Source of the DNA: Bdellovibrionales bacterium
GTDB taxonomy: Bacteria > Bdellovibrionota > Bdellovibrionia > Bdellovibrionales > UBA1609
Direction of reading: 5' to 3'
Assembly (NCBI GenBank): GCA_965261545.1
Contig: CBDHDF010000001.1
Coordinates: 1 to 24,041 of the forward strand
DNA: 24,041 bases
Made by a program: the position numbers and the translations under genes. The notes below the pieces were generated by a model. It did not search any database. It saw only the letters and a program-made list of their open reading frames with translations, and was not told the DNA's origin. The first letter of the stretch is position 1. Each line of letters begins with the position of its first letter. This document shows positions 3,872 to 23,779 of this stretch, one piece after another.

Positions 3872-4029
3872 GTAACATTCATGGGGGCGCCTTGCTTCCC
3901 CACCCACGCCCATGAATCTTTCTAGGCCCCCACTTCTTTGCACGAAGCAACTCGGTGGACAGCTTCGCTGGTCTATATAATTGGCCTCTTTTAGTTACTC
4001 TGGACTTTTGATTGTATTTTTGTCATGTA

Positions 4030-4250
4030 TGATTCCGATACAATAAAGGATAAAGCAATAACATTATTGGAAGGTGATAAGATGAGTGGCCGTTGAATAG
4101 ATTGGTAATTTTAATTCCGTGAAGTAACATGGTCTTGAGCTTTGGATCGAACCCACGCATGTACCTGCACTCTGAGTGTATGGACGTATAGTAAGTTGAC
4201 CTATTTTCGCTTTAGAATTTATGGCAAAATCCCAAGGCTCTAGTTTTATC
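4030..4250 (+). ncRNA. Candidate IS110 bridge RNA in the ~410-bp upstream non-coding region (boundaries approximate; also present in copies B and C)
   Basis: IS110-type elements such as IS621 encode a guide RNA upstream of the recombinase. Short segments match the target (TGAATAG 4094-4100) and the donor junction (AGTAACAT 4123-4130; CCCACGCATGT 4152-4162). Structure not computed. Confidence 0.55.
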
Positions 4251-4713
4251 ACCTTCTTTTTTTCTAACAGAAAGGAGGAGTCATGTGGATATTATTTATA
4301 GTTCTGTTTGTGGAATAGATGTTCATCAACATATGTTGATGTGTACGATTGTCAAAGTGGAAGACGGTAAGAAGAAGTTTTTCACAAAAGAGTTCAAGAA
4401 TTTTCCAAAAAATTTTCCTAGAATGCGCTCTTGGATGAAGCCACATAAGGTTGAGAGAGTTCTTTTTGAGAGCACAGGGATTTATTGGAATTCTTTATAC
4501 GATGATTTGACAGAAAAAGGTTATGAAGTAGATGTTATCAATGCCTTTCATGTCAAAAATATTACTGGTAAAAAAACTGACGTGTTGGATAGCCAGTGGA
4601 TTGCAGAGCTTGGTGCTTGTGGTCTTCTGCTGAATTTCACGAGTTTGACCCACTGAATTTCACGAAGTTTGACCCACCCCTCAGTCAGTCAATTTGAGGT
4701 CCAATTTTGAATT

Positions 4714-5121
4714 TCACGGTGGCTCAAACTTTGTCAATTTAAACCTTCTTTTTTCTGCTGACTCAGTAACTTTTACACCCTCAATGTCACGATGTCCCAA
4801 CGGTGGGTTAAGGCTTATTTGCCAGAATGTTAGATGCCAACTAAAATTGGCCACTTTGTCATTGAGAATCTCGGCCCTTCCCATTTTTGAGGTTTCAATG
4901 GAGGGTTTTTCGATGGGGATGTTGAACCCATGGCTCAAAATGGCAGAGAATAGCGAGCCAGTTATCCACAAATTTATCCATGGTGACGCTGCGTCTGTGA
5001 CCCCGATGTCTATCAACGCAGCGCTGCCGTGGGTAAATTTTGTGGATAACTGGCGGGTACATGATTCAATAGTTCCGATGGAGTGTCTCCCGATGGTGTC
5101 TTCTAAGGTCTGCTTTTGCAT
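4714..5121 (-). CDS. Possible 135-aa hypothetical ORF downstream of istB
   Basis: ATG with good RBS (AAGGAG) immediately after the istB stop; no recognisable motif, and it runs through a DNA palindrome. Confidence 0.25.
   Translation of the reverse strand: MQKQTLEDTIGRHSIGTIESCTRQLSTKFTHGSAALIDIGVTDAASPWINLWITGSLFSAILSHGFNIPIEKPSIETSKMGRAEILNDKVANFSWHLTFWQISLNPPLGHRDIEGVKVTESAEKRRFKLTKFEPP
4957..5054. repeat. 98-bp imperfect palindrome containing TTATCCACA boxes
   Basis: GCCAGTTATCCACAAATTTA...TAAATTTTGTGGATAACTGGC; homologous to 11379-11476 and 20769-20866. Confidence 0.9.
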
Positions 5122-5130
5122 GGATTCTCC

Positions 5131-5859
5131 TTAAATCGTCTTTCTCTGCCTAAATGAGCTTCCAGACATGGCTATTTTGATAGCTTGAGAGGTTATGCGA
5201 TCCATAATAGCTTCACAAACGATGGGATCCCCAATGACTTCACTCCAATTTTTTATTGGAAGTTGGGTTGTAAGAATGAGGCTCAGGTCAGGGCCTCGTT
5301 CATCAATCACATCGTAAAGGTCTTGATATTGGCTGGAGGTAAGGGGTTTGATACCAAAGTCATCCAACACAAGTATAGAGATTGATTTTAGCCTTTTAAG
5401 GAAGTTTAGATATGTCCCCTGGGCTCTTTCTAAGTTGAATTTTTCAACAAGAGTATTCATTCTGAAGAACTGAGTGGAAAAACCCTGGCGACAGGCGTGA
5501 TTGCCTATGGCACAAGCCAAATATGACTTTCCAACACCTGTTGGGCCAGAGATAATTATATTTTGACCTCTTTGAGCAAATCTCATAAGGGCTAGATCAC
5601 TCAAAACTCTTCGATCGACTCCTCGGCTGGGCTTGGTTTCAAAGGCCTCAAGGCTTGCTTTTTGCTTCAAAGCTGCTCTTTTGATAAGTCTTAAGACCTT
5701 CTGATTGTCACGATGGATTTTCTCGTCCTCAAAGATGACATTTAGAAAATCTTCGTAACCAAGATCCTGCTCCTCAGCTTCTTTGAGCCTCTGGCTCAAG
5801 GTTGCTAAAACTCCCCTCATTTTTAATATCTCTAATAAATTTTCTGTTTGTTTAATCAT
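5131..5859 (-). CDS. istB: IS21-family helper AAA+ ATPase IstB
   Basis: Walker A GPTGVGKS, Walker B LVLDDFG, plus LILTTQLP and EAIMDRI. Confidence 0.95.
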   Translation of the reverse strand: MIKQTENLLEILKMRGVLATLSQRLKEAEEQDLGYEDFLNVIFEDEKIHRDNQKVLRLIKRAALKQKASLEAFETKPSRGVDRRVLSDLALMRFAQRGQNIIISGPTGVGKSYLACAIGNHACRQGFSTQFFRMNTLVEKFNLERAQGTYLNFLKRLKSISILVLDDFGIKPLTSSQYQDLYDVIDERGPDLSLILTTQLPIKNWSEVIGDPIVCEAIMDRITSQAIKIAMSGSSFRQRKTI

Positions 5860-5939
5860 TTTCTTCTCCTATACGACCTCTCTTATGGAGGTCCAAATGA
5901 CCCGTTAGGTGGTTGAGAACCACCCACCGGGGCTATGGA

Positions 5940-7454
5940 TCAGTGCCAAGTATTCTCCCAGTGCCCTGAACCTCTTAAGTTTTCATTAGGTTGACGGCAG
6001 ACTCTTGGCTCCTCTTTTCGATGACTTTTTGCTGAAATGACTTTCTCAACTCCACGAACCCTAATGTCACTTAAAGCTGCATCTACAAAAAATGAGCAAG
6101 CCTGCTCCAAAGAAGCTGTTGAATAACGCTTTCTTAGATTGAGTATCCCCTGAACACGGCGAAGATACATAAGCGGATGGCGAGGCTCTTTGATAAGCCG
6201 TTGAGCAACTTTGTGAATGCTTTCTCCAAGGCTTGATGCCTCTTTAAGTACATTTTGTGGCGTTTGCTCTAAAATGGCCCGGTGGGACTCAGGGAGATGA
6301 GATTTTGTCGTAAAATAGCGCCCTCGACTTCCCTGGGGGATGTGATGTATCGCCACCCGCTCTAATTCTGAATAAACCTCCAAGCATTGTTGGCTAATAC
6401 GAATATCTAATTTCTTGCCGCGATGCTTATAAGGAACAGAGTAAAAATTGTAGTTATATTGAATGTGACAATCCGGATGAACCTTGGCATGCTTCCAGAA
6501 TCCACTCTCATAGCGTCTTTCAGGAAGAGGATTCAATTTTGACTTCTCAAAAGATTCAAACTTCTGTCGACGACTCAACCCATACTTTTTTTGAATACGA
6601 TCATTGAAAATAGCTGCCAAATGCTTCAACTCAGCGTTGATGTCTGCTAGAGAATACATTTGTCGCTCTCTTATCTGGGGCCAAGACCAGCGCCAAAAGA
6701 CTCCAAGGGTATTTTCGATAAGACTCTTGTCTTTGGGATGAGATGGCCTCATCGCCAAAGGAGCCACATTGTAGTGATCACACAAGAGGTGAAAATCAGA
6801 GTTAATATCGGGATCATAAGTATCAGCTCTTGTCACTTGAACCTTTGCGTTATCAAAAGCAATGGTTCCGGTCACACCACCAAAAAACTCAAAACCAGAA
6901 GCTATGGAGGAAAAAACATCTTCCCGCTGCTCTGTTAATGTGGCGCAGGGAAAGAAAAACTGACTCGATGGAAGTATCATCCCAAATAATCGACATTGGA
7001 TGAACTCCCCAGTCTTGGCATCTGTATAGCCAAAACAAGAGTCTTTTCCCTTATAGTCAAACTCACTCCGTTCACCAGGGGTGAATGTCTGGTGCATATC
7101 AAGCTTTATACTTGGGTGCCTCCGACGAAACTCTCTCCAAAAAGAAAGATAACTCACACCGTCAATCTCGGACTGAATATGTCGCTCCCAGTAATGAGCC
7201 AATTGAGTCCCTAGGCTTTGCTTGAGGCGAACATCTGTCCAATTCACCTTGGATGACCATGGGGCTTGGTAGGGCCCATGCGACCCCTTTGAGCGGCTGT
7301 TAGGGCCTCCGGGACTATCCTTCACATACTTCTTCACAGTGTTCCGACTAACACCCATAGCTCGAGCTATTTGTCTCGAACTGAGTCCAAGCTCTATGTA
7401 TTTCTTAATATTGTTGATCATTCTTGCTCCTTTTTTCTTACCTTGTTTGCCCAT
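5940..7454 (-). CDS. istA: IS21-family transposase IstA
   Basis: N-terminal HTH (SRQIARAMGVSRNTVKKY), PGERSEFDY, FDNAK, PKDKSLIEN, VHPDCHIQY..NFYSVPY; GAGGAGG upstream of the ATG at 7454. Confidence 0.95.
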   Translation of the reverse strand: MGKQGKKKGARMINNIKKYIELGLSSRQIARAMGVSRNTVKKYVKDSPGGPNSRSKGSHGPYQAPWSSKVNWTDVRLKQSLGTQLAHYWERHIQSEIDGVSYLSFWREFRRRHPSIKLDMHQTFTPGERSEFDYKGKDSCFGYTDAKTGEFIQCRLFGMILPSSQFFFPCATLTEQREDVFSSIASGFEFFGGVTGTIAFDNAKVQVTRADTYDPDINSDFHLLCDHYNVAPLAMRPSHPKDKSLIENTLGVFWRWSWPQIRERQMYSLADINAELKHLAAIFNDRIQKKYGLSRRQKFESFEKSKLNPLPERRYESGFWKHAKVHPDCHIQYNYNFYSVPYKHRGKKLDIRISQQCLEVYSELERVAIHHIPQGSRGRYFTTKSHLPESHRAILEQTPQNVLKEASSLGESIHKVAQRLIKEPRHPLMYLRRVQGILNLRKRYSTASLEQACSFFVDAALSDIRVRGVEKVISAKSHRKEEPRVCRQPNENLRGSGHWENTWH

Positions 7455-7506
7455 AGACACCTCCTCGTTAATGCGTAGCGCAGAAAGAATATCTATGAAG
7501 ATCTAA

Positions 7507-7606
7507 GTGGGTCAATGTTTGGTGAAATTCAGTGGGTCAAACTTCGTGAAATTGGGTGGGTCAAACCAGGTGAAATTGGGTGGGTCAAACTAGGTGAAAT
7601 TTTGCA
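7507..7606. repeat. Four ~24-bp tandem repeats GTGGGTCAAAC-N4-GTGAAATT (putative IstA binding sites)
   Basis: Units start at 7507, 7532, 7556 and 7580; two inverted counterparts at the other end (~4633-4677). Multiple terminal repeats are typical of IS21. Confidence 0.88.
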
Positions 7607-9102
7607 CTTCTAAGAGCTAGCTTCATTCCTCCACGTGAGATTCGTTCTATTAGACTTTTGGCTCGTTATCGTACAAAAACGATCCGCCAAATATCTTCGG
7701 AACAAAATCGTATGTATAAGGTTCTTGAATATTCAGGCATTCGTTTAACCTATGCAATGTCTAAAGCTGACTGCGTATCTGGTATGGCCATGATTCGTGC
7801 CATAGCTAATGGAGAGAGATCAGTTTCTAAATTGATGTCTCTTGCCAGAGGGTCTTTACGTCAAAAGACCGAAGAATTTTCTTACGCCCTGTCGGGAAAG
7901 ATGACGGAAGAAAATCGTTTTGTTCTTCAACGCATTCTTGATCGAATAGATTTTTTGAAAAAAGAATGCTCTCAAATTGAAGAAGAACTTTTCATTCGTA
8001 TGAAACCCTATGAAAGGCAGTGGCATCTACTCCAGACTCAATGCCGTTTCCTTAAGAAAAATCTCTTGAAATTATTAGATAAATCGACAAGAATAAGACT
8101 TGTTTTATTTTACACCCAACCCTCAACCAAGGAGTAAGTCACATGCAATCCAATATTGATCTCGAAAGCCCCCAAATGACGAGTTCGCGTCACAGATGAC
8201 CATTTTATTCTACCAAAACTTGATTCTTCCTTCAAGCCAGAGCACCTTGTCGATCCAGAAAAACAAAAAAGGAATCGAAAATTTAATCCTCAAATTTTCT
8301 TTTTTACTATTATCTATCTTATTTCCGGAACAAATTACGAAGGCTACCAAATCGCTCTTAAGACGGTATGGACTCATTTTGGTGACCTGCTTCTCATGCC
8401 AGTCAAAAGCAGTCTCAGCAAGATACGTCAAAGTATTTCTTACCTATTTTTTAAAAATATCTTTGAATCTCTGATTACAGACTACGAACCATTGAGAAAA
8501 ACGTTTCATGGCTTTTATATCTATGCCATAGATGGTGTTAGCTGACAATTAAAATGCCCCACCGTCGCCAATGAAAAGTGGCCACTTTTCAGAGGAGGAC
8601 CTATGGTGATTTTTGGCATTGTCAACCGAGACGCATATAATCAATTGATATTACTCATAAAAAGGCTCCGAGCTGATAAGAACTCCTTTTGGGTTCTTGT
8701 CGACCTGGAAAGGGGCTCCGTGTTGGAGAGTCCTTCCATGACAGCCTATTCAGGTTCCATATTTGTCATTTGTAGACTGTTTCTGGATTTCAATGAGGTT
8801 AAATATATAGTCAAGAAAAGCCTGTTTAGGCTGTGCCCATTTTCTAAAGTATTTAAATTCCACAAGATTCCAACATTTGCCTCAATTTTCATGGAATTTC
8901 TTTCTGAAGACAGGCTTCCCTTAAAGCCGTCGCCAATTAAAATGTCCCACTTTCAATATGGAGGTTGTCGCCAATGAAAAGTGACCAATCTTCAGGGAGT
9001 GTTCAAATACTAGACAATGAAGTCTCTTCTTCTGATATAGATACTAAGCTCACAGAGTCCCTCCCTCTTGCAACTCAAAAGGTTAGCAATGAGGAGGATC
9101 TT

Positions 9103-10569
9103 ATGATTAGTCAATACACTTTCGGCCGCATTCGTGACCTGAGTCACAGTGGTAAAAATAAGACAGAAATATCTCGTGAATTAGGGATCAATCGTAAGAC
9201 GGTGCGCAAGTACTGTGAGTCCAACACCCCACCGAAGTACAAGGCGAGGTCCAAAAGAACTCGCCCAGATCCCCTTAATGGATATATGGATCGGGTGAAG
9301 TACTTTTTGAAGTTGAACCCAAGTAACACCGCCCGTGAAATATATGAGCTATTAGTTGAGGAGGGTTATCGTGGGAGTGAGAGAACGGTTCAGAGAAGAG
9401 TTTGTGAGATTCTTGGTTCTCGCCCCAAGGAGCGTTTTTTCAGCCAAAGATATGATCCTGGAGAACAGGCTCAGTTTGATTTTAAGGAGAAGGTTGCTTT
9501 ACCATTTGCCGATGGTGTTCAGATCGTTCATCTCCATTTTGGAACATTGCCTTGTAGTGGCACCTGTTGGGTTCGTGCCTACCCCTTTCTTGTCTATGAG
9601 TGTTTCATCGATGGGGTGCATGCTTTTTTTGAAAAGATAGGTGGGATGAGTGCGAACATCCGTATTGATAATTTATCTCCCTGTGTGAAGAAAGTTCTTA
9701 AAGGAAATCAGCGAATTTACACCCAATCTTTTGATCGAGCCATCCAATACTATGGATTTAAGGTTCTTCCCTGCCGCGCAGGGAAGGGCTCTGACAAGGG
9801 AGATGTGGAGCGTGATATTCGAACCTTCAGTTCTCGGATAAAAAATATTGTTAGAAACAAAGGAATTGTTTTTAAAGACTGGGATCATTTGAATCAGTTT
9901 TTAGAGTCTTATATGGATCAGCATCAGAGTGACTCCACCAAATCTCGCTTTGAGGAGGAGGCCAAAGTTCTTAAGCCTTTGCCTCCACGAGATAAAGATA
10001 TTCTCTGTAAGGTGAATATTTGTCAAAGTAATGGTTATGGGACTTTGAGAATAGGTAAAACCACATATTCCATACCTGATGAGGTGATCCAAGCTCCCTG
10101 TAAAACCGTACAGGGTCCCTATCATGTCACGATCTATCGTGCAGGAGGGAAGCAAGAAATTGTCGCTCGCCATCAAAGAAAACCTGATGGGGAGCATAGT
10201 CTTCTTCTTGAACATATCCTTCCCTCTTTAGTTCGTAAGCCGCAAGCCATGGTAAGATGGGCTCACCGATCCATTCTTTTTCCAACAAATGTGTTTGAAA
10301 ATTTTTATCAATACCTCAAGCAACAAGATTCAAGCCGTGCCGAGCATGAATATTTAAGAGTTATCAACTTGATTCAGCATGTGAGTTGGCAGGACTTATC
10401 TACAGCCATGGAGCTTCAATTAGAAAGTCGTGAGATTTTCGACTTTAAATCCATAAAAGATTTGCTCTTAGGCAATCCCACCAAAATTAATTTGAATGAC
10501 CAACAAAAACCACTTCAACCTAGATTGTCTCAATATGACAGTCTTGTTCCAAACATAGGAGGTTCTTAA
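9103..10569 (+). CDS. istA: IS21-family transposase IstA
   Basis: HTH ISRELGINRKTVRKY, PGEQAQFDF, IRIDNL, DKGDVERDI; ATG at 9103 follows GAGGAGG (ORF open from 8965). Confidence 0.95.
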   Translation: MISQYTFGRIRDLSHSGKNKTEISRELGINRKTVRKYCESNTPPKYKARSKRTRPDPLNGYMDRVKYFLKLNPSNTAREIYELLVEEGYRGSERTVQRRVCEILGSRPKERFFSQRYDPGEQAQFDFKEKVALPFADGVQIVHLHFGTLPCSGTCWVRAYPFLVYECFIDGVHAFFEKIGGMSANIRIDNLSPCVKKVLKGNQRIYTQSFDRAIQYYGFKVLPCRAGKGSDKGDVERDIRTFSSRIKNIVRNKGIVFKDWDHLNQFLESYMDQHQSDSTKSRFEEEAKVLKPLPPRDKDILCKVNICQSNGYGTLRIGKTTYSIPDEVIQAPCKTVQGPYHVTIYRAGGKQEIVARHQRKPDGEHSLLLEHILPSLVRKPQAMVRWAHRSILFPTNVFENFYQYLKQQDSSRAEHEYLRVINLIQHVSWQDLSTAMELQLESREIFDFKSIKDLLLGNPTKINLNDQQKPLQPRLSQYDSLVPNIGGS

Positions 10570-11351
10570 TGAATCACGAAGAACTTATAGGTTCTCTTAA
10601 AAAACTCCGACTTCCAGCGATGGCGGATGAATATGTTGCAACGGCTAGAGTTGCCGAAAAAACAAAAAAGACGTATGAACAGTATTTAGGTATACTCGTT
10701 CAAAATGAGCTTGCTGACAAGCATTCCCAGAGAGTGAAAAGATTGCTTAAGGGGGCCAAGCTTCCTCAACTTAAATCACTCCAAACTTATAACTTCCAGA
10801 AAAGAACGGGAGTGACAGCTCAGCAAATTAATTGGATGGCAGAGGGAGAGTGGGTCAGAAAAGCCTGTAATGTTGTGTTTTACGGAAGCTTTGGAATGGG
10901 GAAAAGTCATTTGGCCATGTCCCTAGTTCGTTCACTCTGTGAACAAGGCTATCGATGTTTATGGGTCACCACTCATGAACTTATTGAAACAATGCGTGAA
11001 AGCAAGAAAGAACTCTCATTGAATGCTCTTTTTAAGAAATTAGACCGTTTTGATCTTATTGCTTGTGATGAACTTGGCTATACAGCTTCCTGCACAGAGG
11101 GGGCAGATCTTTTCTTTCAATTCATATCTCAGCGATATGAAAGGAAAAGTCTCATGATCACTACAAACTTAACATACTCTGAATGGGATAAGGTGTTTCT
11201 TAACCCTATTACCACCGCTGCTGCTGTTGATCGAATCATTCACAACTGTGAAACCCTCAACATTGAAGGAAAAGAAAGTTGGAGAACCGAATCGGCAAAA
11301 GCCAAGTCTAAACAGAGCAAAGAGGAAAGTTCAACCAAAGAAGTTCATTAG
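10569..11351 (+). CDS. istB: IS21-family helper ATPase IstB
   Basis: GSFGMGKS, IACDELGY, RYERKSLMITTNL, AAVDRIIH; TAATG stop/start overlap with istA. Confidence 0.95.
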   Translation: MNHEELIGSLKKLRLPAMADEYVATARVAEKTKKTYEQYLGILVQNELADKHSQRVKRLLKGAKLPQLKSLQTYNFQKRTGVTAQQINWMAEGEWVRKACNVVFYGSFGMGKSHLAMSLVRSLCEQGYRCLWVTTHELIETMRESKKELSLNALFKKLDRFDLIACDELGYTASCTEGADLFFQFISQRYERKSLMITTNLTYSEWDKVFLNPITTAAAVDRIIHNCETLNIEGKESWRTESAKAKSKQSKEESSTKEVH

Positions 11352-11378
11352 AGATCCCCACTTTTGGGGAAGGAACTC

Positions 11379-11476
11379 GCCAGTTATCCACAAAATTTAT
11401 CCACAGCAGCACTGCGTTGCTAGACATCGGGGTCACAGCCGCAGTGTCGCCATGGATAAATTTATGGATAACTGGC
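11379..11476. repeat. 98-bp palindrome with TTATCCACA boxes downstream of istB
   Basis: TTATCCACA at 11384-11392 and 11397-11405, with inverted near-matches on the other arm. Confidence 0.9.
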
Positions 11477-13384
11477 TTTTACCGTACTATTTGCTCGTCA
11501 CTCTCGCGGAGCTTTAGACATTAGCTGCGCCAAGGAATCCTGAAAAATACTCCATTTACCTCTGCCATAGGGCTGAAGGATGCATTTGGGGTCATGCCAA
11601 AAGTGGTGGGCAGAAAATCATTCCTCAGAATCTTGTGGCATAGTCCGAGTTAAATGATGAGCAAAATAAAGACACTTGACTAAACTCTGAACGAAGAATA
11701 ACTAAATCAGTACATCATCAACTGGCCGTTTTTCATTGGCGACGGCTTCTAAAAATGGCCAATTTTAATTGGCGCCTAACAGATGGCGACCAATTAGCAC
11801 TTCCTCGCTCTAAAGATCTTTTAAAGGAGGGTTATTGTGGGTACCCTTGCCCAAATGAGATGGAAACTCATTTCTTACGTATGTATCTATCTCATGCTTA
11901 TGACGTTTTATCGGGTGTGACAAAGAATCTTTGCTTTTCTCCCGCTCTCAACGAAATCGCCAATGCTATTCAAATGATAGGTAGTTTTGAGAGTAATAGC
12001 ATAACTCTCTACGATAGCTTTATTTATCTACAGAGATTATTAAGGCCCATGCTCAAGCCAGTAACTTCTTTATTGCGCGTTGTAAGCGAGGCTCTACTTT
12101 TATCCCCATCGTAAATTTATTTAATGGCCCAGGTTGGTATTCACAAATGGTTATTGAGGGGGTGGTCATTCATCTCTATAAGTATAAAAACCCAAAGACT
12201 GGGGAGTTCTCTGTTTTGGCCACTAATCTTCCGCATGGCTCCTTGGACAAGAAGGATATGGTTGCTCTTTACTCTCGTCGTTGGGAAATAGAAACGACAT
12301 TTCGTGATTTTACATCGACAATGAAAATGGAGCAGTGGCACTCAACAAGCCTTAATGGAATATTGCAAGAGCTGTATTCTTATTTTTGGCTCTTCAATTA
12401 TACAAAGATTCAAATGAGCATAAATGAGGATGAAGACAGTGTGAATCAGTTGGTAAAAAATGACTACAAAAAACCTAACTTTAAACTGATTCTTGATTTC
12501 ATAATGGATAGCATCCCCCTTTTTGTTGCGGGGCTCTATCAGAAATTTAGGAAGCAGATAAAGTTGCTGATGAAGATTTCAATGGAGAAGAGGAGGCACT
12601 TCAAAAGAAGCTATGAAAGGTCTATCAAAAGGGCTGGGAGTTCTTTTAAAAGAAATAGCTTAACGCAGAGGCAGAGGGGTGTGGTGGCTTAAGGAAACGG
12701 CATTGACTCCAGACTATACCTGGAATTGACGAATTAAGTGCAGCGCTTTTGATTGCAGAAATAGGAGGCAATGTGAAGTCTTTTAAAAATAAAGGAAATT
12801 TTTGCTCCTGGATGGGGATTTGCCCATCCAATAATGAGAGCGCAGGAAAAAAAAAGTCTTCACGAACGAGGAAAGCGAACACATATGTGAAATCGTTGGT
12901 ATGTGAGATGGCCAATAGTGCTATTAAGACGAATTCACAATTCAAAGGCAAATACCAATCACTTGTTATAAGGCGTGGGCACAAGAGATCAGTGATTGCC
13001 GTTGGTCACAAAATGATGGGAGTTGTTTATTCAGTCATAAGTAATGACACCCCCTACAAAGACCCTGGAATTGACTATGAAAAGCTCATGGTGAAAAAAA
13101 ATGCACCAAGGTGGATTAGAGCGTTAAAAAAGTATGATTTCATGTAATGTAGGATGATTTAAAAACTCGGACATTTGAAAAAATTCGAAGAACGGATAGT
13201 GGATTCGTGCGTCCAAACTACCCCGGAGATTCATAGTAACATTCATGGGGGCGCCTTGCTTCCCCACCCACGCCCATGAATCTTATCTAGTCGCTGTCGC
13301 GAAATAGACTTAAGAAATCCATCATTCAGCTTCAAGGTGGTCTTTTTGATAAATATAATTTTCAATTTGCATAAGATTTTTAAA

Positions 13385-14802: not shown

Positions 14803-15168
14803 TTTTTAAATGGACTCCTCTCCTGAAGATAGCGAGTAGAGAATTCTGGGTCAAAATGGTTCATTTTACACATATCCATGATGATTTTTGCTTTTGGCCC
14901 CACTGTCCTTTTTGATGTGTTGAAGTGCTCAACAATCTCATCCATGGAAACATATGGTGACGTCTTGCTATCATAAAGAAAGTTAATTCTCCCAATGGCA
15001 TGAATAATCCCCGCAGCCCAAATTTCTACTCTTCCTGTCATGTAAGGGACTTGTCTTTTTCGAGACATTCTTGCTACTACACCGTGACAGAGGTTTTTAT
15101 ACTCATCGTTTATATATTGGTCACAAAAATCACTAATAGCCTTTTCAAGTTCTTTCCTTCTTGGTTGA

Positions 15169-16701
15169 ATGATTTGCTTCTTTTTCATTGGGCCTCCTGT
15201 TAACCTTATTACCATGTTTCACCTCATGATAAAGGATTATCGCTATGAGTTTATGCCCAGAAGGCCTCGAAACCAAGGTCCACCCTGCCAAGGTATCTAT
15301 TATCGTCACAGAATCCGATCCTCTGATTCAACTGGCCAACCACGTCGATTGGAGCTATCTGTCGTGTCTGGTCATGCCCGACTTAAAAGCCACGACTGCA
15401 AAGGGTTTTTGGTGGCTAGGAAGAAAGCTCTTTTTAAGAGTTCATCTAGCCGTGCTGCTGCTTCAGGTTCTATTCAAACTCACGGATCGAGGGGTGGAGC
15501 AACGGATAAAAGAAACGGCCAGTTATCAGCTTTTTTGTGGTCTAAATATCCTCAAAAAATGGTGTTGTCCCGATCATACGAAAATAGAAAAATTTCGCAA
15601 TCGACTGACGGAAGAGACTCACAAAGAAATAGGAGATTATATTCTTCGCTTGGCTCAATCCCTGGGGTTTGCAGACGCCTCTCATTTGGATGTCGATTCG
15701 ACCGTTCAGGAAGCCAATATGGCTTATCCCTCCGATGCCAGTCTTTTGAAAAAGTTGGCTCAGAAGTGTTACAAAATTCTTTCGTATCTTCAAGAAAAGC
15801 AGAAGACCTACTTACCATCGGGTATAACCATAGATATCAAAGCCATCATCAAGGCCGCTCGAAAGTATTTTTTTCTAGCCAAAAATTGTGTATTAGAGAA
15901 GAAGAGGGAGGTATTTTCAGACCTTCACAGTCTTGTAAAGTCAGAGTTAAAAGCCTTTATAAGGTTTGCAGAAAATCTTTCTCCACAGGCTCTAGCGAGT
16001 CTTCCTTGGAACCACCGAGAAGCCGTCACAGAAGTGAGAGACAAGGCTTGGAGATACCTTTTGGACGTGGCCCATTTTGTAAGAACTCACACCATCAAGC
16101 CTGGCAAAATCCTTGCCTTCAAATTGTGTGCGGTCGCCTGTATCAAAAAGGGGAAGTTAGGCAAAGACAAGGAGTTTGGGAGGGTCTTCCAAGTCGGGCG
16201 GATTGGTGGAAATTTTATTGTTCCCTATACTTGCACTTCTGTGAGAATGGACGACAAGGAGTCATTGCCAGCTATATTGGAAGAACATCAAAAAATATTT
16301 GGCGAAGATATTTTAGAGTCAGTTACAACAGACAAGGGGTATTATTCACAAGCCAACGTCAATCTCGTCAAAGATGTTGTGGGAAATGCAGATGGAATTC
16401 AAAGACCTGCCAACGTAAAAGAACAGGTCGAAGCCCCCCAGAAAGAAGAATTATACAATCGCAGGTCGGGGGTCGAACCTCTCATAGGGCATGTCAAAAA
16501 CTTTGGATTAGCAAGAAGCAAGATGAAAGGGGATGGGGCCACACTGGCTTCGGGGTATCGCTCGACCATGGGGTTCAATCTGCACCAAATTATGAGAAAT
16601 TTAGCGGTGACGATGCCAACTCCAAGCTTCAAGGGTGGGTAGAACAAGGGAAAGTTAAAAAGAGGCTACTTCAGAGCCCAAGTCCAAATGAGGGCACATA
16701 A
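15169..16701 (+). CDS. Candidate overprinted ORF (up to 510 aa) in the -1 frame of the IS5 transposase
   Basis: Stop-free across the whole transposase gene; in-frame ATGs at 15214, 15226 and 15253; no recognisable domain. Confidence 0.35.
   Translation: MICFFFIGPPVNLITMFHLMIKDYRYEFMPRRPRNQGPPCQGIYYRHRIRSSDSTGQPRRLELSVVSGHARLKSHDCKGFLVARKKALFKSSSSRAAASGSIQTHGSRGGATDKRNGQLSAFLWSKYPQKMVLSRSYENRKISQSTDGRDSQRNRRLYSSLGSIPGVCRRLSFGCRFDRSGSQYGLSLRCQSFEKVGSEVLQNSFVSSRKAEDLLTIGYNHRYQSHHQGRSKVFFSSQKLCIREEEGGIFRPSQSCKVRVKSLYKVCRKSFSTGSSESSLEPPRSRHRSERQGLEIPFGRGPFCKNSHHQAWQNPCLQIVCGRLYQKGEVRQRQGVWEGLPSRADWWKFYCSLYLHFCENGRQGVIASYIGRTSKNIWRRYFRVSYNRQGVLFTSQRQSRQRCCGKCRWNSKTCQRKRTGRSPPERRIIQSQVGGRTSHRACQKLWISKKQDERGWGHTGFGVSLDHGVQSAPNYEKFSGDDANSKLQGWVEQGKVKKRLLQSPSPNEGT
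15245..16642 (+). CDS. IS5-family DDE transposase, 465 aa
   Basis: LTDRGVEQ, YQLFCG, PDHT, DSTVQEANMAYPSD, KGKLGKDKEFG, TDKGY, RRSGVEPLIGHVK, GFNL. Confidence 0.9.
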   Translation: MSLCPEGLETKVHPAKVSIIVTESDPLIQLANHVDWSYLSCLVMPDLKATTAKGFWWLGRKLFLRVHLAVLLLQVLFKLTDRGVEQRIKETASYQLFCGLNILKKWCCPDHTKIEKFRNRLTEETHKEIGDYILRLAQSLGFADASHLDVDSTVQEANMAYPSDASLLKKLAQKCYKILSYLQEKQKTYLPSGITIDIKAIIKAARKYFFLAKNCVLEKKREVFSDLHSLVKSELKAFIRFAENLSPQALASLPWNHREAVTEVRDKAWRYLLDVAHFVRTHTIKPGKILAFKLCAVACIKKGKLGKDKEFGRVFQVGRIGGNFIVPYTCTSVRMDDKESLPAILEEHQKIFGEDILESVTTDKGYYSQANVNLVKDVVGNADGIQRPANVKEQVEAPQKEELYNRRSGVEPLIGHVKNFGLARSKMKGDGATLASGYRSTMGFNLHQIMRNLAVTMPTPSFKGG

Positions 16702-18492
16702 ACGGCCCTTTTTAATTTCGCGACAGCGACTATCTAGGCCCCCACTTCTTTGCACGAAGCAACTCGGTGGACAGCTTCGCTGGTCTATATAATTGGCCTC
16801 TTTTAGTTACTCTGGACTTTTGATGGTATTTTTGTCATGTATGATTCCGATACAATAAAGGATAAAGCAATAACATTATTGGAAGGTGATAAGATGAGTG
16901 GCCGTTGAATAGATTGGTAATTTTAATTCCGTGAAGTAACATGGTCTTGAGCTTTGGATCGAACCCACGCATGTACCTGCACTCTGAGTGTATGGACGTA
17001 TAGTAAGTTGACCTATTTTCGCTTTAGAATTTATGGCAAAATCCCAAGGCTCTAGTTTTATCACCTTCTTTTTTTCTAACAGAAAGGAGGAGTCATGTGG
17101 ATATTATTTATAGTTCTGTTTGTGGAATAGATGTTCATCAACATATGTTGATGTGTACGATTGTCAAAGTGGAAGACGGTAAGAAGAAGTTTTTCACAAA
17201 AGAGTTCAAGAATTTTCCAAAAAATTTTCCTAGAATGCGCTCTTGGATGAAGCCACATAAGGTTGAGAGAGTTCTTTTTGAGAGCACAGGGATTTATTGG
17301 AATTCTTTATACGATGATTTGACAGAAAAAGGTTATGAAGTAGATGTTATCAATGCCTTTCATGTCAAAAATATTACTGGTAAAAAAACTGACGTGTTGG
17401 ATAGCCAGTGGATTGCAGAGCTTGGTGCTTGTGGTCTTCTAAGAGCTAGCTTCATTCCTCCACGTGAGATTCGTTCTATTAGACTTTTGGCTCGTTATCG
17501 TACAAAAACGATCCGCCAAATATCTTCGGAACAAAATCGTATGTATAAGGTTCTTGAATATTCAGGCATTCGTTTAACCTATGCAATGTCTAAAGCTGAC
17601 TGCGTATCTGGTATGGCCATGATTCGTGCCATAGCTAATGGAGAGAGATCAGTTTCTAAATTGATGTCTCTTGCCAGAGGGTCTTTACGTCAAAAGACCG
17701 AAGAATTTTCTTACGCCCTGTCGGGAAAGATGACGGAAGAAAATCGTTTTGTTCTTCAACGCATTCTTGATCGAATAGATTTTTTGAAAAAAGAATGCTC
17801 TCAAATTGAAGAAGAACTTTTCATTCGTATGAAACCCTATGAAAGGCAGTGGCATCTACTCCAGACTATACCTGGAATTGACGAATTAAGTGCAGCGCTT
17901 TTGATTGCAGAAATAGGAGGCAATGTGTTAGCTGACAATTAAAATGCCCCACCGTCGCCAATGAAAAGTGGCCACTTTTCAGAGGAGGACCTATGGTGAT
18001 TTTTGGCATTGTCAACCGAGACGCATATAATCAATTGATATTACTCATAAAAAGGCTCCGAGCTGATAAGAACTCCTTTTGGGTTCTTGTCGACCTGGAA
18101 AGGGGCTCCGTGTTGGAGAGTCCTTCCATGACAGCCTATTCAGGTTCCATATTTCTCCTTTGTAGACTGTTTCTGGATTTCAATGAGGTTAAATATATAG
18201 TCAAGAAAAGCCTGTTTAGGCTGTGCCCATTTTCTAAAGTATTTAAATTCCACAAGATTCCAACATTTGCCTCAATTTTCATGGAATTTCTTTCTGAAGA
18301 CAGGCTTCCCTTAAAGCCGTCGCCAATTAAAATGTCCCACTTTCAATATGGAGGTTGTCGCCAATGAAAAGTGACCAATCTTCAGGGAGTGTTCAAATAC
18401 TAGACAATGAAGTCTCTTCTTCTGATATAGATACTAAGCTCACAGAGTCCCTCCCTTTTGCAACTCAAAAGGTTAGCAATGAGGAGGATCTT

Positions 18493-19959
18493 ATGATTAG
18501 TCAATACACTTTCGGCCGCATTCGTGACCTGAGTCACAGTGGTAAAAATAAGACAGAAATATCTCGTGAATTAGGGATCAATCGTAAGACGGTGCGCAAG
18601 TACTGTGAGTCCAACACCCCACCGAAGTACAAGGCGAGGTCCAAAAGAACTCGCCCAGATCCCCTTAATGGATATATGGATCGGGTGAAGTACTTTTTGA
18701 AGTTGAACCCAAGTAACACCGCCCGTGAAATATATGAGCTATTAGTTGAGGAGGGTTATCGTGGGAGTGAGAGAACGGTTCAGAGAAGAGTTTGTGAGAT
18801 TCTTGGTTCTCGCCCCAAGGAGCGTTTTTTCAGCCAAAGATATGATCCTGGAGAACAGGCTCAGTTTGATTTTAAGGAGAAGGTTGCTTTACCATTTGCC
18901 GATGGTGTTCAGATCGTTCATCTCCATTTTGGAACATTGCCTTGTAGTGGCACCTGTTGGGTTCGTGCCTACCCCTTTCTTGTCTATGAGTGTTTCATCG
19001 ATGGGGTGCATGCTTTTTTTGAAAAGATAGGTGGGATGAGTGCGAACATCCGTATTGATAATTTATCTCCCTGTGTGAAGAAAGTTCTTAAAGGAAATCA
19101 GCGAATTTACACCCAATCTTTTGATCGAGCCATCCAATACTATGGATTTAAGGTTCTTCCCTGCCGCGCAGGGAAGGGCTCTGACAAGGGAGATGTGGAG
19201 CGTGATATTCGAACCTTCAGTTCTCGGATAAAAAATATTGTTAGAAACAAAGGAATTGTTTTTAAAGACTGGGATCATTTGAATCAGTTTTTAGAGTCTT
19301 ATATGGATCAGCATCAGAGTGACTCCACCAAATCTCGCTTTGAGGAGGAGGCCAAAGTTCTTAAGCCTTTGCCTCCACGAGATGAAGATATTCTCTGTAA
19401 GGTGAATATTTGTCAAAGTAATGGTTATGGGACTTTGAGAATAGGTAAAACCACATATTCCATACCTGATGAGGTGATCCAATCTCCCTGTAAAACCGTA
19501 CAGGGTCCCTATCATGTCACGATCTATCGTGCAGGAGGGAAGCAAGAAATTGTCGCTCGCCATCAAAGAAAACCTGATGGGGAGCATAGTCTTCTTCTTG
19601 AACATATCCTTCCCTCTTTAGTTCGTAAGCCGCAAGCCATGGTAAGATGGGCTCACCGATCCATTCTTTTTCCAACAAATGTGTTTGAAAATTTTTATCA
19701 ATACCTCAAGCAACAAGATTCAAGCCGTGCCGAGCATGAATATTTAAGAGTTATCAACTTGATTCAGCATGTGAGTTGGCAGGACTTATCTACAGCCATG
19801 GAGCTTCAATTAGAAAGTCGTGAGATTTTCGACTTTAAATCCATAAAAGATTTGCTCTTAGGCAATCCCACCAAAATTAATTTGAATGACCAACAAAAAC
19901 CACTTCAACCTAGATTGTCTCAATATGACAGTCTTGTTCCAAACATAGGAGGTTCTTAA
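18493..19959 (+). CDS. istA: IS21-family transposase IstA
   Basis: Two amino-acid differences from 9103-10569. Confidence 0.95.
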   Translation: MISQYTFGRIRDLSHSGKNKTEISRELGINRKTVRKYCESNTPPKYKARSKRTRPDPLNGYMDRVKYFLKLNPSNTAREIYELLVEEGYRGSERTVQRRVCEILGSRPKERFFSQRYDPGEQAQFDFKEKVALPFADGVQIVHLHFGTLPCSGTCWVRAYPFLVYECFIDGVHAFFEKIGGMSANIRIDNLSPCVKKVLKGNQRIYTQSFDRAIQYYGFKVLPCRAGKGSDKGDVERDIRTFSSRIKNIVRNKGIVFKDWDHLNQFLESYMDQHQSDSTKSRFEEEAKVLKPLPPRDEDILCKVNICQSNGYGTLRIGKTTYSIPDEVIQSPCKTVQGPYHVTIYRAGGKQEIVARHQRKPDGEHSLLLEHILPSLVRKPQAMVRWAHRSILFPTNVFENFYQYLKQQDSSRAEHEYLRVINLIQHVSWQDLSTAMELQLESREIFDFKSIKDLLLGNPTKINLNDQQKPLQPRLSQYDSLVPNIGGS

Positions 19960-20741
19960 TGAATCACGAAGAACTTATAGGTTCTCTTAAAAAACTCCGA
20001 CTTCCAGCGATGGCGGATGAATATGTTGCAACGGCTAGAGTTGCCGAAAAAACAAAAAAGACGTATGAACAGTATTTAGGTATACTCGTTCAAAATGAGC
20101 TTGCTGACAAGCATTCCCAGAGAGTGAAAAGATTGCTTAAGGGGGCCAAGCTTCCTCAACTTAAATCACTCCAAACTTATAACTTCCAGAAAAGAACGGG
20201 AGTGACAGCTCAGCAAATTAATTGGATGGCAGAGGGAGAGTGGGTCAGAAAAGCCTGTAATGTTGTGTTTTACGGAAGCTTTGGAATGGGGAAAAGTCAT
20301 TTGGCCATGTCCCTAGTTCGTTCACTCTGTGAACAAGGCTATCGATGTTTATGGGTCACCACTCATGAACTTATTGAAACAATGCGTGAAAGCAAGAAAG
20401 AACTCTCATTGAATGCTCTTTTTAAGAAATTAGACCGTTTTGATCTTATTGCTTGTGATGAACTTGGCTATACAGCTTCCTGCACAGAGGGTGCTGATCT
20501 TTTCTTTCAATTCATATCTCAGCGATATGAAAGGAAAAGTCTCATGATCACTACAAACTTAACTTACTCTGAATGGGATAAGGTGTTTCTTAACCCTATT
20601 ACCACCGCTGCTGCTGTTGATCGAATTATTCACAACTGTGAAACCCTCAACATTGAAGGAAAAGAAAGTTGGAGAACCGAATCGGCAAAAGCCAAGTCTA
20701 AACAGAGCAAAGAGGAAAGTTCAACCAAAGAAGTTCATTAG
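19959..20741 (+). CDS. istB: IS21-family helper ATPase IstB
   Basis: Protein identical to 10569-11351. Confidence 0.95.
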   Translation: MNHEELIGSLKKLRLPAMADEYVATARVAEKTKKTYEQYLGILVQNELADKHSQRVKRLLKGAKLPQLKSLQTYNFQKRTGVTAQQINWMAEGEWVRKACNVVFYGSFGMGKSHLAMSLVRSLCEQGYRCLWVTTHELIETMRESKKELSLNALFKKLDRFDLIACDELGYTASCTEGADLFFQFISQRYERKSLMITTNLTYSEWDKVFLNPITTAAAVDRIIHNCETLNIEGKESWRTESAKAKSKQSKEESSTKEVH

Positions 20742-20768
20742 AGATCCCCACTTTTGGGGAAGGAACTC

Positions 20769-20866
20769 GCCAGTTATCCACAAAATTTATCCACAGCAGC
20801 ACTGCGTTGCTAGACATCGGGGTCACAGCCGCAGTGTCGCCATGGATAAATTTATGGATAACTGGC
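20769..20866. repeat. 98-bp palindrome with TTATCCACA boxes (copy in IS21-b copy 2)
   Basis: Identical to 11379-11476. Confidence 0.9.
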
Positions 20867-21643
20867 TTTTACCGTACTATTTGCTCGTCACTCTCGCGGA
20901 GCTTTAGACATTAGCTGCGCCAAGGAATCCTGAAAAATACTCCATTTACCTCTGCCATAGGGCTGAAGGATGCATTTGGGGTCATGCCAAAAGTGGTGGG
21001 CAGAAAATCATTCCTCAGAATCTTGTGGCATAGTCCGAGTTAAATGATGAGCAAAATAAAGACACTTGACTAAACTCTGAACGAAGAATAACTAAATCAG
21101 TACATCATCAACTGGCCGTTTTTCATTGGCGACGGCTTCTAAAAATGGCCAATTTTAATTGGCGCCTAACACAATGTGAAGTCTTTTAAAAATAAAGGAA
21201 ATTTTTGCTCCTGGATGGGGATTTGCCCATCCAATAATGAGAGCGCAGGAAAAAAAAAGTCTTCACGAACGAGGAAAGCGAACACATATGTGAAATCGTT
21301 GGTATGTGAGATGGCCAATAGTGCTATTAAGACGAATTCACAATTCAAAGGCAAATACCAATCACTTGTTATAAGGCGTGGGCACAAGAGATCAGTGATT
21401 GCCGTTGGTCACAAAATGATGGGAGTTGTTTATTCAGTCATAAGTAATGACACCCCCTACAAAGACCCTGGAATTGACTATGAAAAGCTCATGGTGAAAA
21501 AAAATGCACCAAGGTGGATTAGAGCGTTAAAAAAGTATGATTTCATGTAATGTAGGATGATTTAAAAACTCGGACATTTGAAAAAATTCGAAGAACGGAT
21601 AGTGGATTCGTGCGTCCAAACTACCCCGGAGATTCATAGTAAC

Positions 21644-23345
21644 ATTCATGGGGGCGCCTTGCTTCCCCACCCACGCCCATGAATCTTTCTAGGCCCCCAC
21701 TTCTTTGCACGAAGCAACTCGGTGGACAGCTTCGCTGGTCTATATAATTGGCCTCTTTTAGTTACTCTGGACTTTTGATGGTATTTTTGTCATGTATGAT
21801 TCCGATACAATAAAGGATAAAGCAATAACATTATTGGAAGGTGATAAGATGAGTGGCCGTTGAATAGATTGGTAATTTTAATTCCGTGAAGTAACATGGT
21901 CTTGAGCTTTGGATCGAACCCACGCATGTACCTGCACTCTGAGTGTATGGACGTATAGTAAGTTGACCTATTTTCGCTTTAGAATTTATGGCAAAATCCC
22001 AAGGCTCTAGTTTTATCACCTTCTTTTTTTCTAACAGAAAGGAGGAGTCATGTGGATATTATTTATAGTTCTGTTTGTGGAATAGATGTTCATCAACATA
22101 TGTTGATGTGTACGATTGTCAAAGTGGAAGACGGTAAGAAGAAGTTTTTCACAAAAGAGTTCAAGAATTTTCCAAAAAATTTTCCTAGAATGCGCTCTTG
22201 GATGAAGCCACATAAGGTTGAGAGAGTTCTTTTTGAGAGCACAGGGATTTATTGGAATTCTTTATACGATGATTTGACAGAAAAAGGTTATGAAGTAGAT
22301 GTTATCAATGCCTTTCATGTCAAAAATATTACTGGTAAAAAAACTGACGTGTTGGATAGCCAGTGGATTGCAGAGCTTGGTGCTTGTGGTCTTCTAAGAG
22401 CTAGCTTCATTCCTCCACGTGAGATTCGTTCTATTAGACTTTTGGCTCGTTATCGTACAAAAACGATCCGCCAAATATCTTCGGAACAAAATCGTATGTA
22501 TAAGGTTCTTGAATATTCAGGCATTCGTTTAACCTATGCAATGTCTAAAGCTGACTGCGTATCTGGTATGGCCATGATTCGTGCCATAGCTAATGGAGAG
22601 AGATCAGTTTCTAAATTGATGTCTCTTGCCAGAGGGTCTTTACGTCAAAAGACCGAAGAATTTTCTTACGCCCTGTCGGGAAAGATGACGGAAGAAAATC
22701 GTTTTGTTCTTCAACGCATTCTTGATCGAATAGATTTTTTGAAAAAAGAATGCTCTCAAATTGAAGAAGAACTTTTCATTCGTATGAAACCCTATGAAAG
22801 GCAGTGGCATCTACTCCAGACTATACCTGGAATTGACGAATTAAGTGCAGCGCTTTTGATTGCAGAAATAGGAGGCAATGTGAAGTCTTTTAAAAATAAA
22901 GGAAATTTTTGCTCCTGGATGGGGATTTGCCCATCCAATAATGAGAGCGCAGGAAAAAAAGTCTTCACGAACGAGGAAAGCGAACACATATGTGAAATCG
23001 TTGGTATGTGAGATGGCCAATAGTGCTATTAAGACGAATTCACAATTCAAAGGCAAATACCAATCACTTGTTATAAGGCGTGGGCACAAGAGATCAGTGA
23101 TTGCCGTTGGTCACAAAATGATGGGAGTTGTTTATTCAGTCATAAGTAATGACACCCCCTACAAAGACCCTGGAATTGACTATGAAAAGCTCATGGTGAA
23201 AAAAAATGCACCAAGGTGGATTAGAGCGTTAAAAAAGTATGATTTCATGTAATGTAGGATGATTTAAAAACTCGGACATTTGAAAAAATTCGAAGAACGG
23301 ATAGTGGATTCGTGCGTCCAAACTACCCCGGAGATTCATAGTAAC
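21644..23345 (+). mobile_element. IS110-family element, tandem copy C (uninterrupted, 1702 bp)
   Basis: Complete unit between GTAAC at 21639-21643 and 23341-23345; no TSD and no terminal IRs, as expected for IS110. Confidence 0.93.
22052..23252 (+). pseudogene. IS110 recombinase copy C, frameshifted in a poly-A run
   Basis: A7 at 22954-22960 versus A9 in copies A and B; restoring A9 gives a 400-aa protein. Confidence 0.85.
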
Positions 23346-23744
23346 TATTCAGGGGGTGCTGCATTAATTCGAACAATTTTTTTAAAAAAAGTATAAAAAT
23401 TCTTGACAAGTTTTTGAAGCAAACGACCTCTTTCATTTGTTCTTTATCGAATATGTTCCTGCATATGCCTTAAACTCTCTGAGAGCCATAGTATTGAAAG
23501 ATTGTGAAACATAGGTCGCGGGGGGCACTTCTCATTCCTTTTGCTTCTTAGAACGAATCCTAGTGCATTTTTTTTAATGAAAAAAAGGCATGTTAATATT
23601 TTCATAAGGTAAGTATGAAAATAGAAAATATTGACGTGTCTTCAGCCATAAATAAAATCAGGAAGCTTCTTAAGAAAGAGAAGTCCCTTTCTCCCGCTTT
23701 TATTGTGGCCATTGAGTTGTTGATCAAAATCATCACTATTCTAG
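23341..23744 (+). mobile_element. Left part of an IS66-family (ISBst12-like) element
   Basis: Starts GTAACTATTCAG (IS66 termini begin GTAA) and is followed by an IS66-like transposase N-terminus. Confidence 0.7.
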
Positions 23745-23779
23745 TTTCTGTCCAGAAAGGCCCATTTTTTGTTCTCTGA
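23615..23779 (+). pseudogene. N-terminal fragment of an IS66 (ISBst12-type) transposase, cut after ~44 codons
   Basis: MKIENIDVSSAINKIRKLLKKEKSLSPAFIVAIELLIKIITILV resembles, from memory, the segment preceding the NSxNSSxPPSxD motif; below the length cut-off of the ORF track. Confidence 0.6.

Follow-up and report, generated by a model that had tools for sequence, protein, structure and literature searches.

An IS110-family element enters the terminal repeat of an IS66-family insertion sequence, rebuilds its target and probably accumulates there in tandem arrays

Organization of the locus

The stretch of DNA analyzed here, called the window below, is the whole of the 24-kb contig C1 (CBDHDF010000001.1, 24,041 nucleotides, forward strand) in the 4.3-Mb, 11-contig genome of a Bdellovibrionales bacterium (GCA_965261545.1). 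This contig is made up of repeats throughout, and both of its ends lie inside repeats. Its central feature is a 1702-bp unit of the IS110 family of insertion sequences (ISs), present in three copies arranged head to tail at 3877-23345, as found by self-comparison of the window and by BLAST of the intact unit against the genome. The array separates the left part of an IS4-family element from one end of an IS66-family element, which we call IS-T. The IS110 element inserts into the terminal repeat of IS-T, each insertion leaves a complete copy of the target behind, and further copies probably enter there. Two of the three units (A and B) are broken up by nested insertion sequences of IS21-, IS4- and IS5-like types. 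The features of the window are as follows (ORF, open reading frame).

3132-3871, plus strand: left portion of IS4-family element copy 1, which IS-T and the IS110 array interrupt at 3871
3864-3871, no strand: TATTTATC, presumed by analogy with 4/4 occupied full-length IS-T copies to be the left member of the 8-bp duplication made by IS-T
3872-3876, plus strand: GTAAC, the outermost 5 bp of the terminal repeat of IS-T, common to all four junctions and holding the crossover
3877-13240, plus strand: IS110 unit A, the most distant from IS-T; nested elements divide it into segments 1-752, 748-1179 and 1163-1702 (unit positions)
4629-7606, minus strand: IS21-family element nested in unit A at unit position 752 (IstB_IS21, 1.7e-60, ORF 5131-5859)
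8039-12698, plus strand: IS4-family element copy 2, nested in unit A at about position 1179, containing a 3247-bp IS21-like element (8535-11781)
13241-21643, plus strand: IS110 unit B, in the middle of the array; segments 1-49, 42-1239 and 1233-1702 (unit positions)
13291-16729: 3.4-kb insertion with IS5/IS4-type DDE ORFs in unit B, at about position 49
17925-21171: second copy of the 3247-bp IS21-like element, in unit B at about position 1239
21644-23345, plus strand: IS110 unit C, adjoining IS-T, uninterrupted, 1702 bp
23341-23745, plus strand: IS-T, first 405 bp; terminal repeat 23341-23358, transposase ORF start 23616
23746-24041, no strand: another high-copy repeat, cutting IS-T at 23745; the contig stops inside it

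With slashes setting off the parts of a junction, the leftmost one reads ...TTTATTTATC/GTAAC/ATTCATGGGGG (3872-3876), the two internal ones ...ATTCATA/GTAAC/ATTCATGGGGG (13236-13240 and 21639-21643) and the rightmost one ...ATTCATA/GTAAC/TATTCAGGGGGTG (23341-23345). A first-pass annotation, made from the letters alone, had proposed three head-to-tail IS110 units with GTAAC at all four junctions, an IS4 copy broken at the left edge of the array and an IS66 element at its right edge. Self-comparison, BLAST and junction reads agree on the first point. The second is borne out by the unbroken IS4 copy of the window, which runs ...TTTATTTATC TACAGAGATT at 12019-12038, while copy 1 is interrupted exactly at 3871. 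A search of the assembly for the other IS-T end followed by TATTTATC and the remainder of the IS4 copy found no such sequence.

The IS66 assignment also holds. Positions 23341-23745 are 100% identical to one end of the 1715-bp element IS-T, whose ORF of 478 amino acids (aa) codes for an IS66-family transposase (PF03050, 1.6e-49; NCBIfam NF033517, 8.1e-85). The terminal repeats, GTAACTATTCAGGGGGTG at both ends, begin with GTAAC, and perfect 8-bp target duplications flank the free full-length copies (3/3). A DDE_Tnp_IS66 transposase, repeats starting with GTAA and an 8-bp duplication together place IS-T in the IS66 family. The canonical layout of this family comprises three genes, tnpA-tnpB-tnpC. 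IS-T does not share it, having a single transposase ORF, with two more frames (80 and 111 aa) on the opposite strand; it resembles the single-ORF subgroup, which we take to be the one named ISBst12-like. IS66 repeats starting with GTAAGCG and 8-bp duplications upon insertion are described in the available part of PMC11946415.

Target choice across the genome

All IS110 ends in the genome, 36 left and 35 right, were compared in a flank census. The flanks of the left ends vary right up to (G)TAAC, with the exception of ends that adjoin another unit or share a duplicated flank. The right ends behave differently: 16 adjoin TATTCA (15 reading TATTCAGGG and one TATTCATTATCG), 8 run into the left end of the next unit and 11 are irregular. 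The first group bears out the expectation of the first-pass annotation that right ends would lie against the first bases of IS66; its interpretation is supported overall. The junction of the window is found again at 15 further right ends, and since base composition predicts 0.002 genomic occurrences of its 16-mer GTAACTATTCAGGGGG, the junction is not due to chance. The two common sequences that follow TATTCAGGGGGTG are the two ends of IS-T.

Seen from the side of the target, IS110 occupies 13 of the 30 IS-T ends that retain GTAAC (7/17 at one end, 6/13 at the other), always in a single orientation with its right end facing IS-T. The 16-mer is also occupied at two sites that lie in contexts other than IS-T. 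Occupancy amounts to 16 of the 38 TAACTATTCA sites, compared with 16 of the 728 CTATTCA sites, all 16 of them with TAAC upstream, and with none of the 13 look-alike GTATC/TATTCAGGGGG sites belonging to another element. The base preceding GTAAC is A at 4/21 occupied and 2/18 empty sites (read by eye), with no evident enrichment.

In occupied full-length IS-T copies, with IS110 at one or both ends, the 8-bp duplication lies outside IS110 in all four cases (GAGTCAAC, AATTTTAC, AAATTATC and AAATTCTT; read by eye). This places IS110 within the end of IS-T, 5 bp in from the tip, in agreement with the first-pass proposal that it had recombined into the first bases of an IS66 element.

Off-target copies narrow down the bases involved. 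Because two of them have TTAAC, the shared core lies within TAAC. At one off-target site (C10 579515) the match is limited to exactly CTATTCA and diverges beyond it, which fits a guide of 7 nucleotides (nt). In addition, one IS110 copy was observed inside another at TTTAAC/CTATGC, unit position 890, and a second copy joined at AGCAAC/TCGGTGG, unit position 75 (G000 C7 263190-266592 and C11 725962-729293); these look-alike sites have AAC in common.

The rebuilt site and the growth of arrays

After an insertion, the right junction reads ...ATAGTAAC/TATTCAGGGGGTG, which is a complete IS-T end with the same 16 bases as naive sites. The first-pass annotation spoke of a self-renewing site. Its first half, the rebuilding of GTAAC/TATTCAG by each insertion, is a fact of the sequence; its second half, the use of the rebuilt site by the next copy, is the best-supported explanation of the arrays, though it is unproven and not the sole process at work.

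Arrays are not confined to the window. Eight perfect junctions between the right end of one unit and the left end of the next occur genome-wide, on four contigs including those of 0.6 and 0.9 Mb. A contig that consists only of repeats and has both ends in repeats might be a mis-assembly of dispersed IS110, IS4 and IS21 copies. We consider this highly improbable for the array of the window, given that the same perfect junctions lie on large contigs as well, that the nested insertions are unique to each window unit and that junction unitigs are present in the reads. Public sequencing runs of one sample, which may be that from which the assembly was made, contain the stretch as contigs, and the depth of the junction unitigs corresponds to about 6-10 junctions where the assembly has 8, an estimate based on about 37 IS110 body copies and 17 IS-T copies in the assembly. 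The possibility of an assembly artefact, raised in the first-pass annotation, is answered by this depth as far as the total of about 8 junctions per about 37 body copies is concerned; the fit applies to junctions genome-wide and not to this particular array. The circular intermediates of the IS110 family have a right-end/left-end junction too, and in the read contigs tandem copies and circles look alike. In run X5, from another study, IS-T is present together with a 340-nt contig in which the IS110 right end continues 13 nt into TATTCAGGGGGTG; this contig was rejected as bridging evidence, one of its sides being too short.

Two markers tell the units apart, an A indel at position 45 and the A7/A9 run. 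Across the eight perfect junctions, neighbouring units differ at these markers in 5 of the 7 comparable pairs. Independent draws from the genome copies would differ in about 3 of 4 cases, whereas copying in place would give identical neighbours. The three units of the window all differ (position 45/A-run: -/A9 in A, A/A9 in B and -/A7 in C) and carry different nested elements at different positions. Furthermore, the unit adjoining the target is uninterrupted in 7/7 arrays, while the 4 units that are interrupted or truncated all occupy outer positions, which is what entry of the newest copy beside IS-T would produce; given the numbers of units per array, this pattern has a chance probability of roughly 0.1. 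Finally, the 16 occupied sites have gained 11 extra units, compared with 16 first insertions among 38 sites, which indicates that rebuilt sites are used no less readily than naive ones.

These patterns bear on the alternative that arrays arise in place, by unequal crossing-over, replication slippage, one-sided ("half-match") recombination through the donor arm only, or insertion of multimeric circles. The IS66 end would still be targeted, and the rebuilt GTAAC/TATTCAG would be a by-product of the shared core. Such processes have precedents: in the accessible part of a preprint (10.64898/2026.08.14.744561), boundaries of repeat units are ascribed to left-donor-only matches, and an IS110 assay, in what is accessible of its report, gave tandem cargo repeats in 3/96 colonies (10.1101/2025.10.25.684509). 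Several arrays of this genome also speak for in-place growth and against re-insertion. Two tandem pairs are identical at both markers, and one of these markers, the A-run, is a homopolymer that slippage or sequencing error could vary. Simple re-insertion does not account for the array with a 52-bp duplication of the left flank (C7 311418/313178), for the 2051-bp repeat present three times (IS110 plus about 350 bp, C7 226760-232568) or for the 22-24-bp right-end fragments between units (C7 122914-122935 and 266593-266616). Even so, several arrays with flank or fragments still terminate in the rebuilt site, beside IS-T or a look-alike. Together with the differing neighbours and the outer position of all interrupted units, this makes growth in place an unlikely origin of the arrays, and we consider it likely that IS110 enters the IS66-family terminal repeat, rebuilds the target and stacks head to tail by re-insertion.

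The IS110 element and its ends

The recombinase frame of unit C is shifted at an A7 run (22954-22960), resulting in two ORFs, 22052-23011 and 22941-23252. The frame is lost in copies with A7 or A8, while copies with an A9 run, 8 of the 22 full-length ones (G000 C10:577812-579515, for example), encode an intact protein of 400 aa. This protein matches PF01548 (DEDD_Tnp_IS110; 4.8e-23, residues 9-154), PF02371 (Transposase_20; 4e-21, residues 253-338) and the NCBIfam model NF033542, "IS110 family RNA-guided transposase" (8.2e-73). Homologues from other samples at 65-80% identity (P0005, P0006, P0007 and P0015) also end at 299-317 aa, and this similar length hints that the A-run may be a conserved slippage or frameshift site rather than a sign of decay.

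The element has the left end ATTCATGGGGG... and the right end ...GATTCATAGTAAC, and its junctions share only (G)TAAC. As is typical of the IS110 family, there are no terminal inverted repeats and no duplication beyond the short shared core, and the target is sequence-specific. The gene is preceded by 408 nt of non-coding DNA and followed by 93 nt. Judged by this arrangement and by a conserved scaffold in the upstream region, the element appears to be of the IS110 group, with its putative guide region upstream of the gene, and is not of the IS1111 group, which is marked by a guide region downstream of the gene and by subterminal inverted repeats.

At the left end lies the following feature.

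21644-21684, plus strand: imperfect 41-nt palindrome (ATTCATGGGGGCG...CGCCCATGAAT)

A comparable TCATGA...CATGAAA hairpin opens the 5' region of relatives at 44-46% identity. The palindrome also occurs alone: about 13 solo copies of 51 bp (C2 618614, C6 99933, C10 576456 and others) consist of GTAAC, the first 41 nt of IS110 and GTTAC. Three of these lack the terminal GTTAC, and some palindromes have CTTCATGG. Both copies that were read by eye (C2 618614 and C6 99933) are flanked by perfect 8-bp duplications, AATGAGAC and CAAATACA; on this ground the 51-bp palindromes look like miniature elements moved by an IS66-type transposase. They may either be derived from the IS110 left end or have been captured by IS110.

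This leads to another explanation of the junctions, in which IS110 and IS-T travel jointly. The IS66 transposase would accept the left terminus of IS110 (GTAAC-ATTCATGGGGG) in place of a genuine end, and some apparent insertions would be copies of IS110-IS-T composites. The terminus does resemble the IS-T repeat (GTAAC-TATTCAGGGGG), 8-bp duplications flank the two left-end palindromes read, and two IS-T copies lie between inverted IS110 copies with the 8-bp duplication outside. The same duplications are, however, predicted if IS110 enters after IS-T. Moreover, the two doubly flanked IS-T copies differ in structure, and no two composites have identical architecture at different sites. We therefore hold joint travel to be improbable, and prefer the entry of IS110 into resident IS-T ends.

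A 65-nt piece of the left end (21721-21785, unit positions 78-142) is 94-97% identical to the non-coding part of an IS256/Mutator-type element of about 1.8 kb (one copy examined). The piece has about 70 matches in the genome and includes TGGACA-N14-TATAAT, possibly a shared or captured promoter.

A candidate guide RNA in the 5' non-coding region

The 5' regions were aligned with those of the closest relatives compared at the DNA level (44-46% protein identity and below), and a consensus fold was derived from 10 sequences. To anything compared at this level, the IS110 protein has about 33-46% identity or less. The fold contains an internal loop closed by a covarying stem, and a second hairpin that covaries strongly; 11 of the 19 predicted pairs show compensatory changes. 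Nowhere is the alignment more variable than in the two loop strands. The candidate guides are the following.

21861-21867, plus strand: TGAATAG, 5' strand of the loop, exact complement of C/TATTCA, the right half of the target
21888-21897, plus strand: GAAGTAAC (21888-21895) followed by AT, 3' strand of the loop
21955-21961, plus strand: ATAGTAA, copy of the right-end terminus, candidate donor guide

The 3' strand includes AGTAAC, identical to the last 6 nt of IS110, of which the 5 nt GTAAC are present at every naive site. The AT that follows GAAGTAAC corresponds to the first two bases of the IS110 left end and not to the target. Both loop matches fall at most 60 nt apart in 0.09% of 20,000 shuffles, a generous figure as the match lengths were picked post hoc. 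In 7/8 relatives examined, the block homologous to ATAGTAA shares a 7-9-nt match with sequence located 94-242 nt downstream of the ORF, and in L024, L034, L067 and L092 this sequence resembles the conserved right end of the element. We regard the loop strands as supported, though putative, guides.

Such guides would account for the rebuilt site. As the left half of the target would be read over only 5-6 bases, the tail of IS110 itself can replace it. With a 7-nt complement of C/TATTCA and a 6-nt copy of AGTAAC in the loop, the rebuilt site ...AGTAAC/TATTCAGGGGG matches the two strands no less well than naive sites do.

Folding the left end as a single sequence gave no clear two-loop picture. 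When the loop strands were compared with the flanks of single-copy relatives, the first strand gave only 6-nt, non-adjacent matches. Endozoicomonas copies (L024-L029) were tried and rejected as a template for guide positions, their flanks being without a consistent target. The 44%-identical IS110 element of an Endozoicomonas metagenome-assembled genome (L024 and L029) is about 1613 bp long and present in at least 7 copies; a solo left-end fragment lies 335 bp upstream of one copy, and another contains a 538-bp partial tandem repeat of the right part.

Occurrence of the element and of its target

Close relatives of the IS110 element were found neither in 101 related genomes, where identity is just 31-35%, nor in 401 genomes of the phylum at E <= 1e-90, its own genome aside. 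In a species-representative collection, the best IS110 identity was 46% by profile scan, and a single-protein scan of genome contigs found none. The closest proteins (P0002-P0006; 67-80% identity) come from other collections; several, like the A7 form, are only about 314 aa long.

In JGI metagenomes, the exact pattern of the right-end junction had 0 matches. The 16-mer GTAACTATTCAGGGGG, in turn, is present in at least 120 metagenome contigs. Among 82 sites of the 16-mer in 80 metagenome loci, 17 are accompanied on their inner side by a transposase of IS66 type (28-52% identity). By this evidence, the target 16-mer is a conserved tip common to diverse IS66-type elements.

Proposed mechanism

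The observations can be combined in the following scheme. A bridge-RNA-type IS110 element would recombine into the outermost bases of an IS66 repeat, between GTAAC and TATTCAGGGGG, with its right end toward the IS66 body in every insertion. Recognition would lie mainly on the IS66 side, where the 7-nt loop guide is proposed to pair with C plus TATTCA; the short guide on the opposite loop strand would read only (A)GTAAC. Because the IS110 tail ends in ...ATAGTAAC, insertion would leave ...AGTAAC/TATTCAGGGGG, an intact IS66 end and at the same time a full target. The next copy could then enter the rebuilt site and displace older copies outward, giving a head-to-tail array.

Several points weigh against this scheme, in addition to the irregular arrays described above. 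In the 5' region we found no convincing guide for the terminus of the IS110 left end. The order of the loop strands is opposite to that in IS621, as far as the accessible text of PMC11208160 describes it, unless the target is read on the other strand, and the two candidate guides overlap by 1 nt and not by a 2-nt core. An Rfam scan of 21500-24041 (E <= 1) yielded no matching family, just a chance poxvirus motif. A scan of the junction and unit C detected neither a sigma-70-like promoter on the plus strand nor a terminator. An IS110 homologue on the outer side was seen at 0/82 metagenome sites, a weak argument as assemblies break at such repeats.

Relation to known systems

Elements that stack at one site by restoring it are known from another context. 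Xer-dependent integrating elements such as CTX phage, and islands in tRNA genes, rebuild their attachment site and accumulate in tandem, since the restored usable site lets successive integrations stack, as proposed here. They differ in employing host or phage tyrosine recombinases and in having a host housekeeping sequence, not a transposon end, as their site.

Closer parallels exist within the IS110 family. IS4321 and IS5075 target the terminal repeats of Tn21-type transposons (accessible part of PMC11187229; title of Partridge & Hall 2003). They share with our element a DEDD recombinase and a fixed position and orientation in the terminal repeat of another transposon. Unlike them, the present element has its main non-coding region upstream of the gene (408 nt versus 93 nt) and thus appears to belong to the IS110 and not the IS1111 group. 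Its host is an IS66-family IS, insertion takes place only 5 bp inside the tip so that the host end stays complete, and arrays are common.

IS621, to the extent that the available text of PMC11208160 and PMC11208158 covers it, belongs to the same protein family and likewise has a long 5' non-coding region with internal loops; its loop strands match the halves of target and donor, to which the candidate guides of our element would correspond. The AT after the short guide, which matches the donor left end instead of the target, corresponds to the "handshake" rule given in PMC11208158. In our element, in contrast, the loop strands are reversed relative to the orientation of the element, the guides overlap by 1 nt with no CT core, and the left half of the target would be read over only 5-6 nt.

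The 2026 preprint (10.64898/2026.08.14.744561), in its accessible part, presents natural head-to-tail multi-copy IS110 loci, and the arrays with flank or right-end fragments described here fit its one-sided "left-donor only" picture. The difference lies in the right junction, which here equals the target letter for letter; the word "IS66" occurs 0 times in that part of the preprint. In the literature searched, preprint supplements being outside that scope, we found no account of an IS110 element that targets IS66 ends or rebuilds its own target. IS110 targeting of transposon ends and tandem IS110 modules have thus been described before, while a self-renewing target was not found in print.

According to current accounts, insertion destroys the target, which is split into two hybrid junctions. 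If the right arm of the donor copies the bases read by the short guide, the right junction would again be a full target, and copies could stack at one address. Surveys have found tandem IS110 loci, and a self-renewing target would account for some of these. Bridge-RNA recombinases are under development as genome-writing tools, and the arrangement suggests a design for repeated stacking of payloads at a single landing site. It is also a clear example of a transposon that exploits another yet does not disable it, at a 16-mer common to many IS66-type elements in varied environments.

A farther-reaching interpretation is two-way parasitism. The match between the IS110 right end and the edge of the target would be an adaptation and more than the shared core: with a very short guide for the outer edge of the IS66 repeat, and a copy of that edge on its tail, IS110 would possess a self-renewing safe harbour, and the IS66 transposase would move IS110 or its palindrome in return. 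We regard this as doubtful. Should it be true, the harbour itself would be mobile and widespread, the arrays would hold ready-made chromosomal donor junctions, the IS110 left terminus would double as an IS66-type end, and RNA-guided and DDE transposons would parasitise each other.

Nested and neighbouring elements

In the IS21-family element of unit A, ORF 5940-7460 matches the Mu-transposase C-terminal domain. The two IS4 copies correspond over 3132-3628 and 8039-8535, and again over 3623-3871 and 11781-12028 at 99.6% (self-comparison); ORF 12147-12692 of copy 2 matches DDE_Tnp_1. An IS4-family insertion at unit positions 1163-1179 (17-bp overlap) was observed in three IS110 copies at different loci (window 7607-13240; G000 C7 348517-351647; C7 115835). 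This recurrent point may either be a hot spot or reflect movement of IS110 with IS4 as cargo.

BLAST of the two contig ends (the tail and the first 400 bases) against the genome gave 93 matches; the 40 listed were all from the tail, and among these 38 matched the repeat at 23746-24041 over its full length at 99-100%. At the opposite end of the contig, an ORF of 781 aa (116-2461, minus strand) carries both a DruA-type domain (1.4e-35) and a DDE domain of IS4 type, and sits between inverted repeats of 100 bp (1-100 and 2976-3073).

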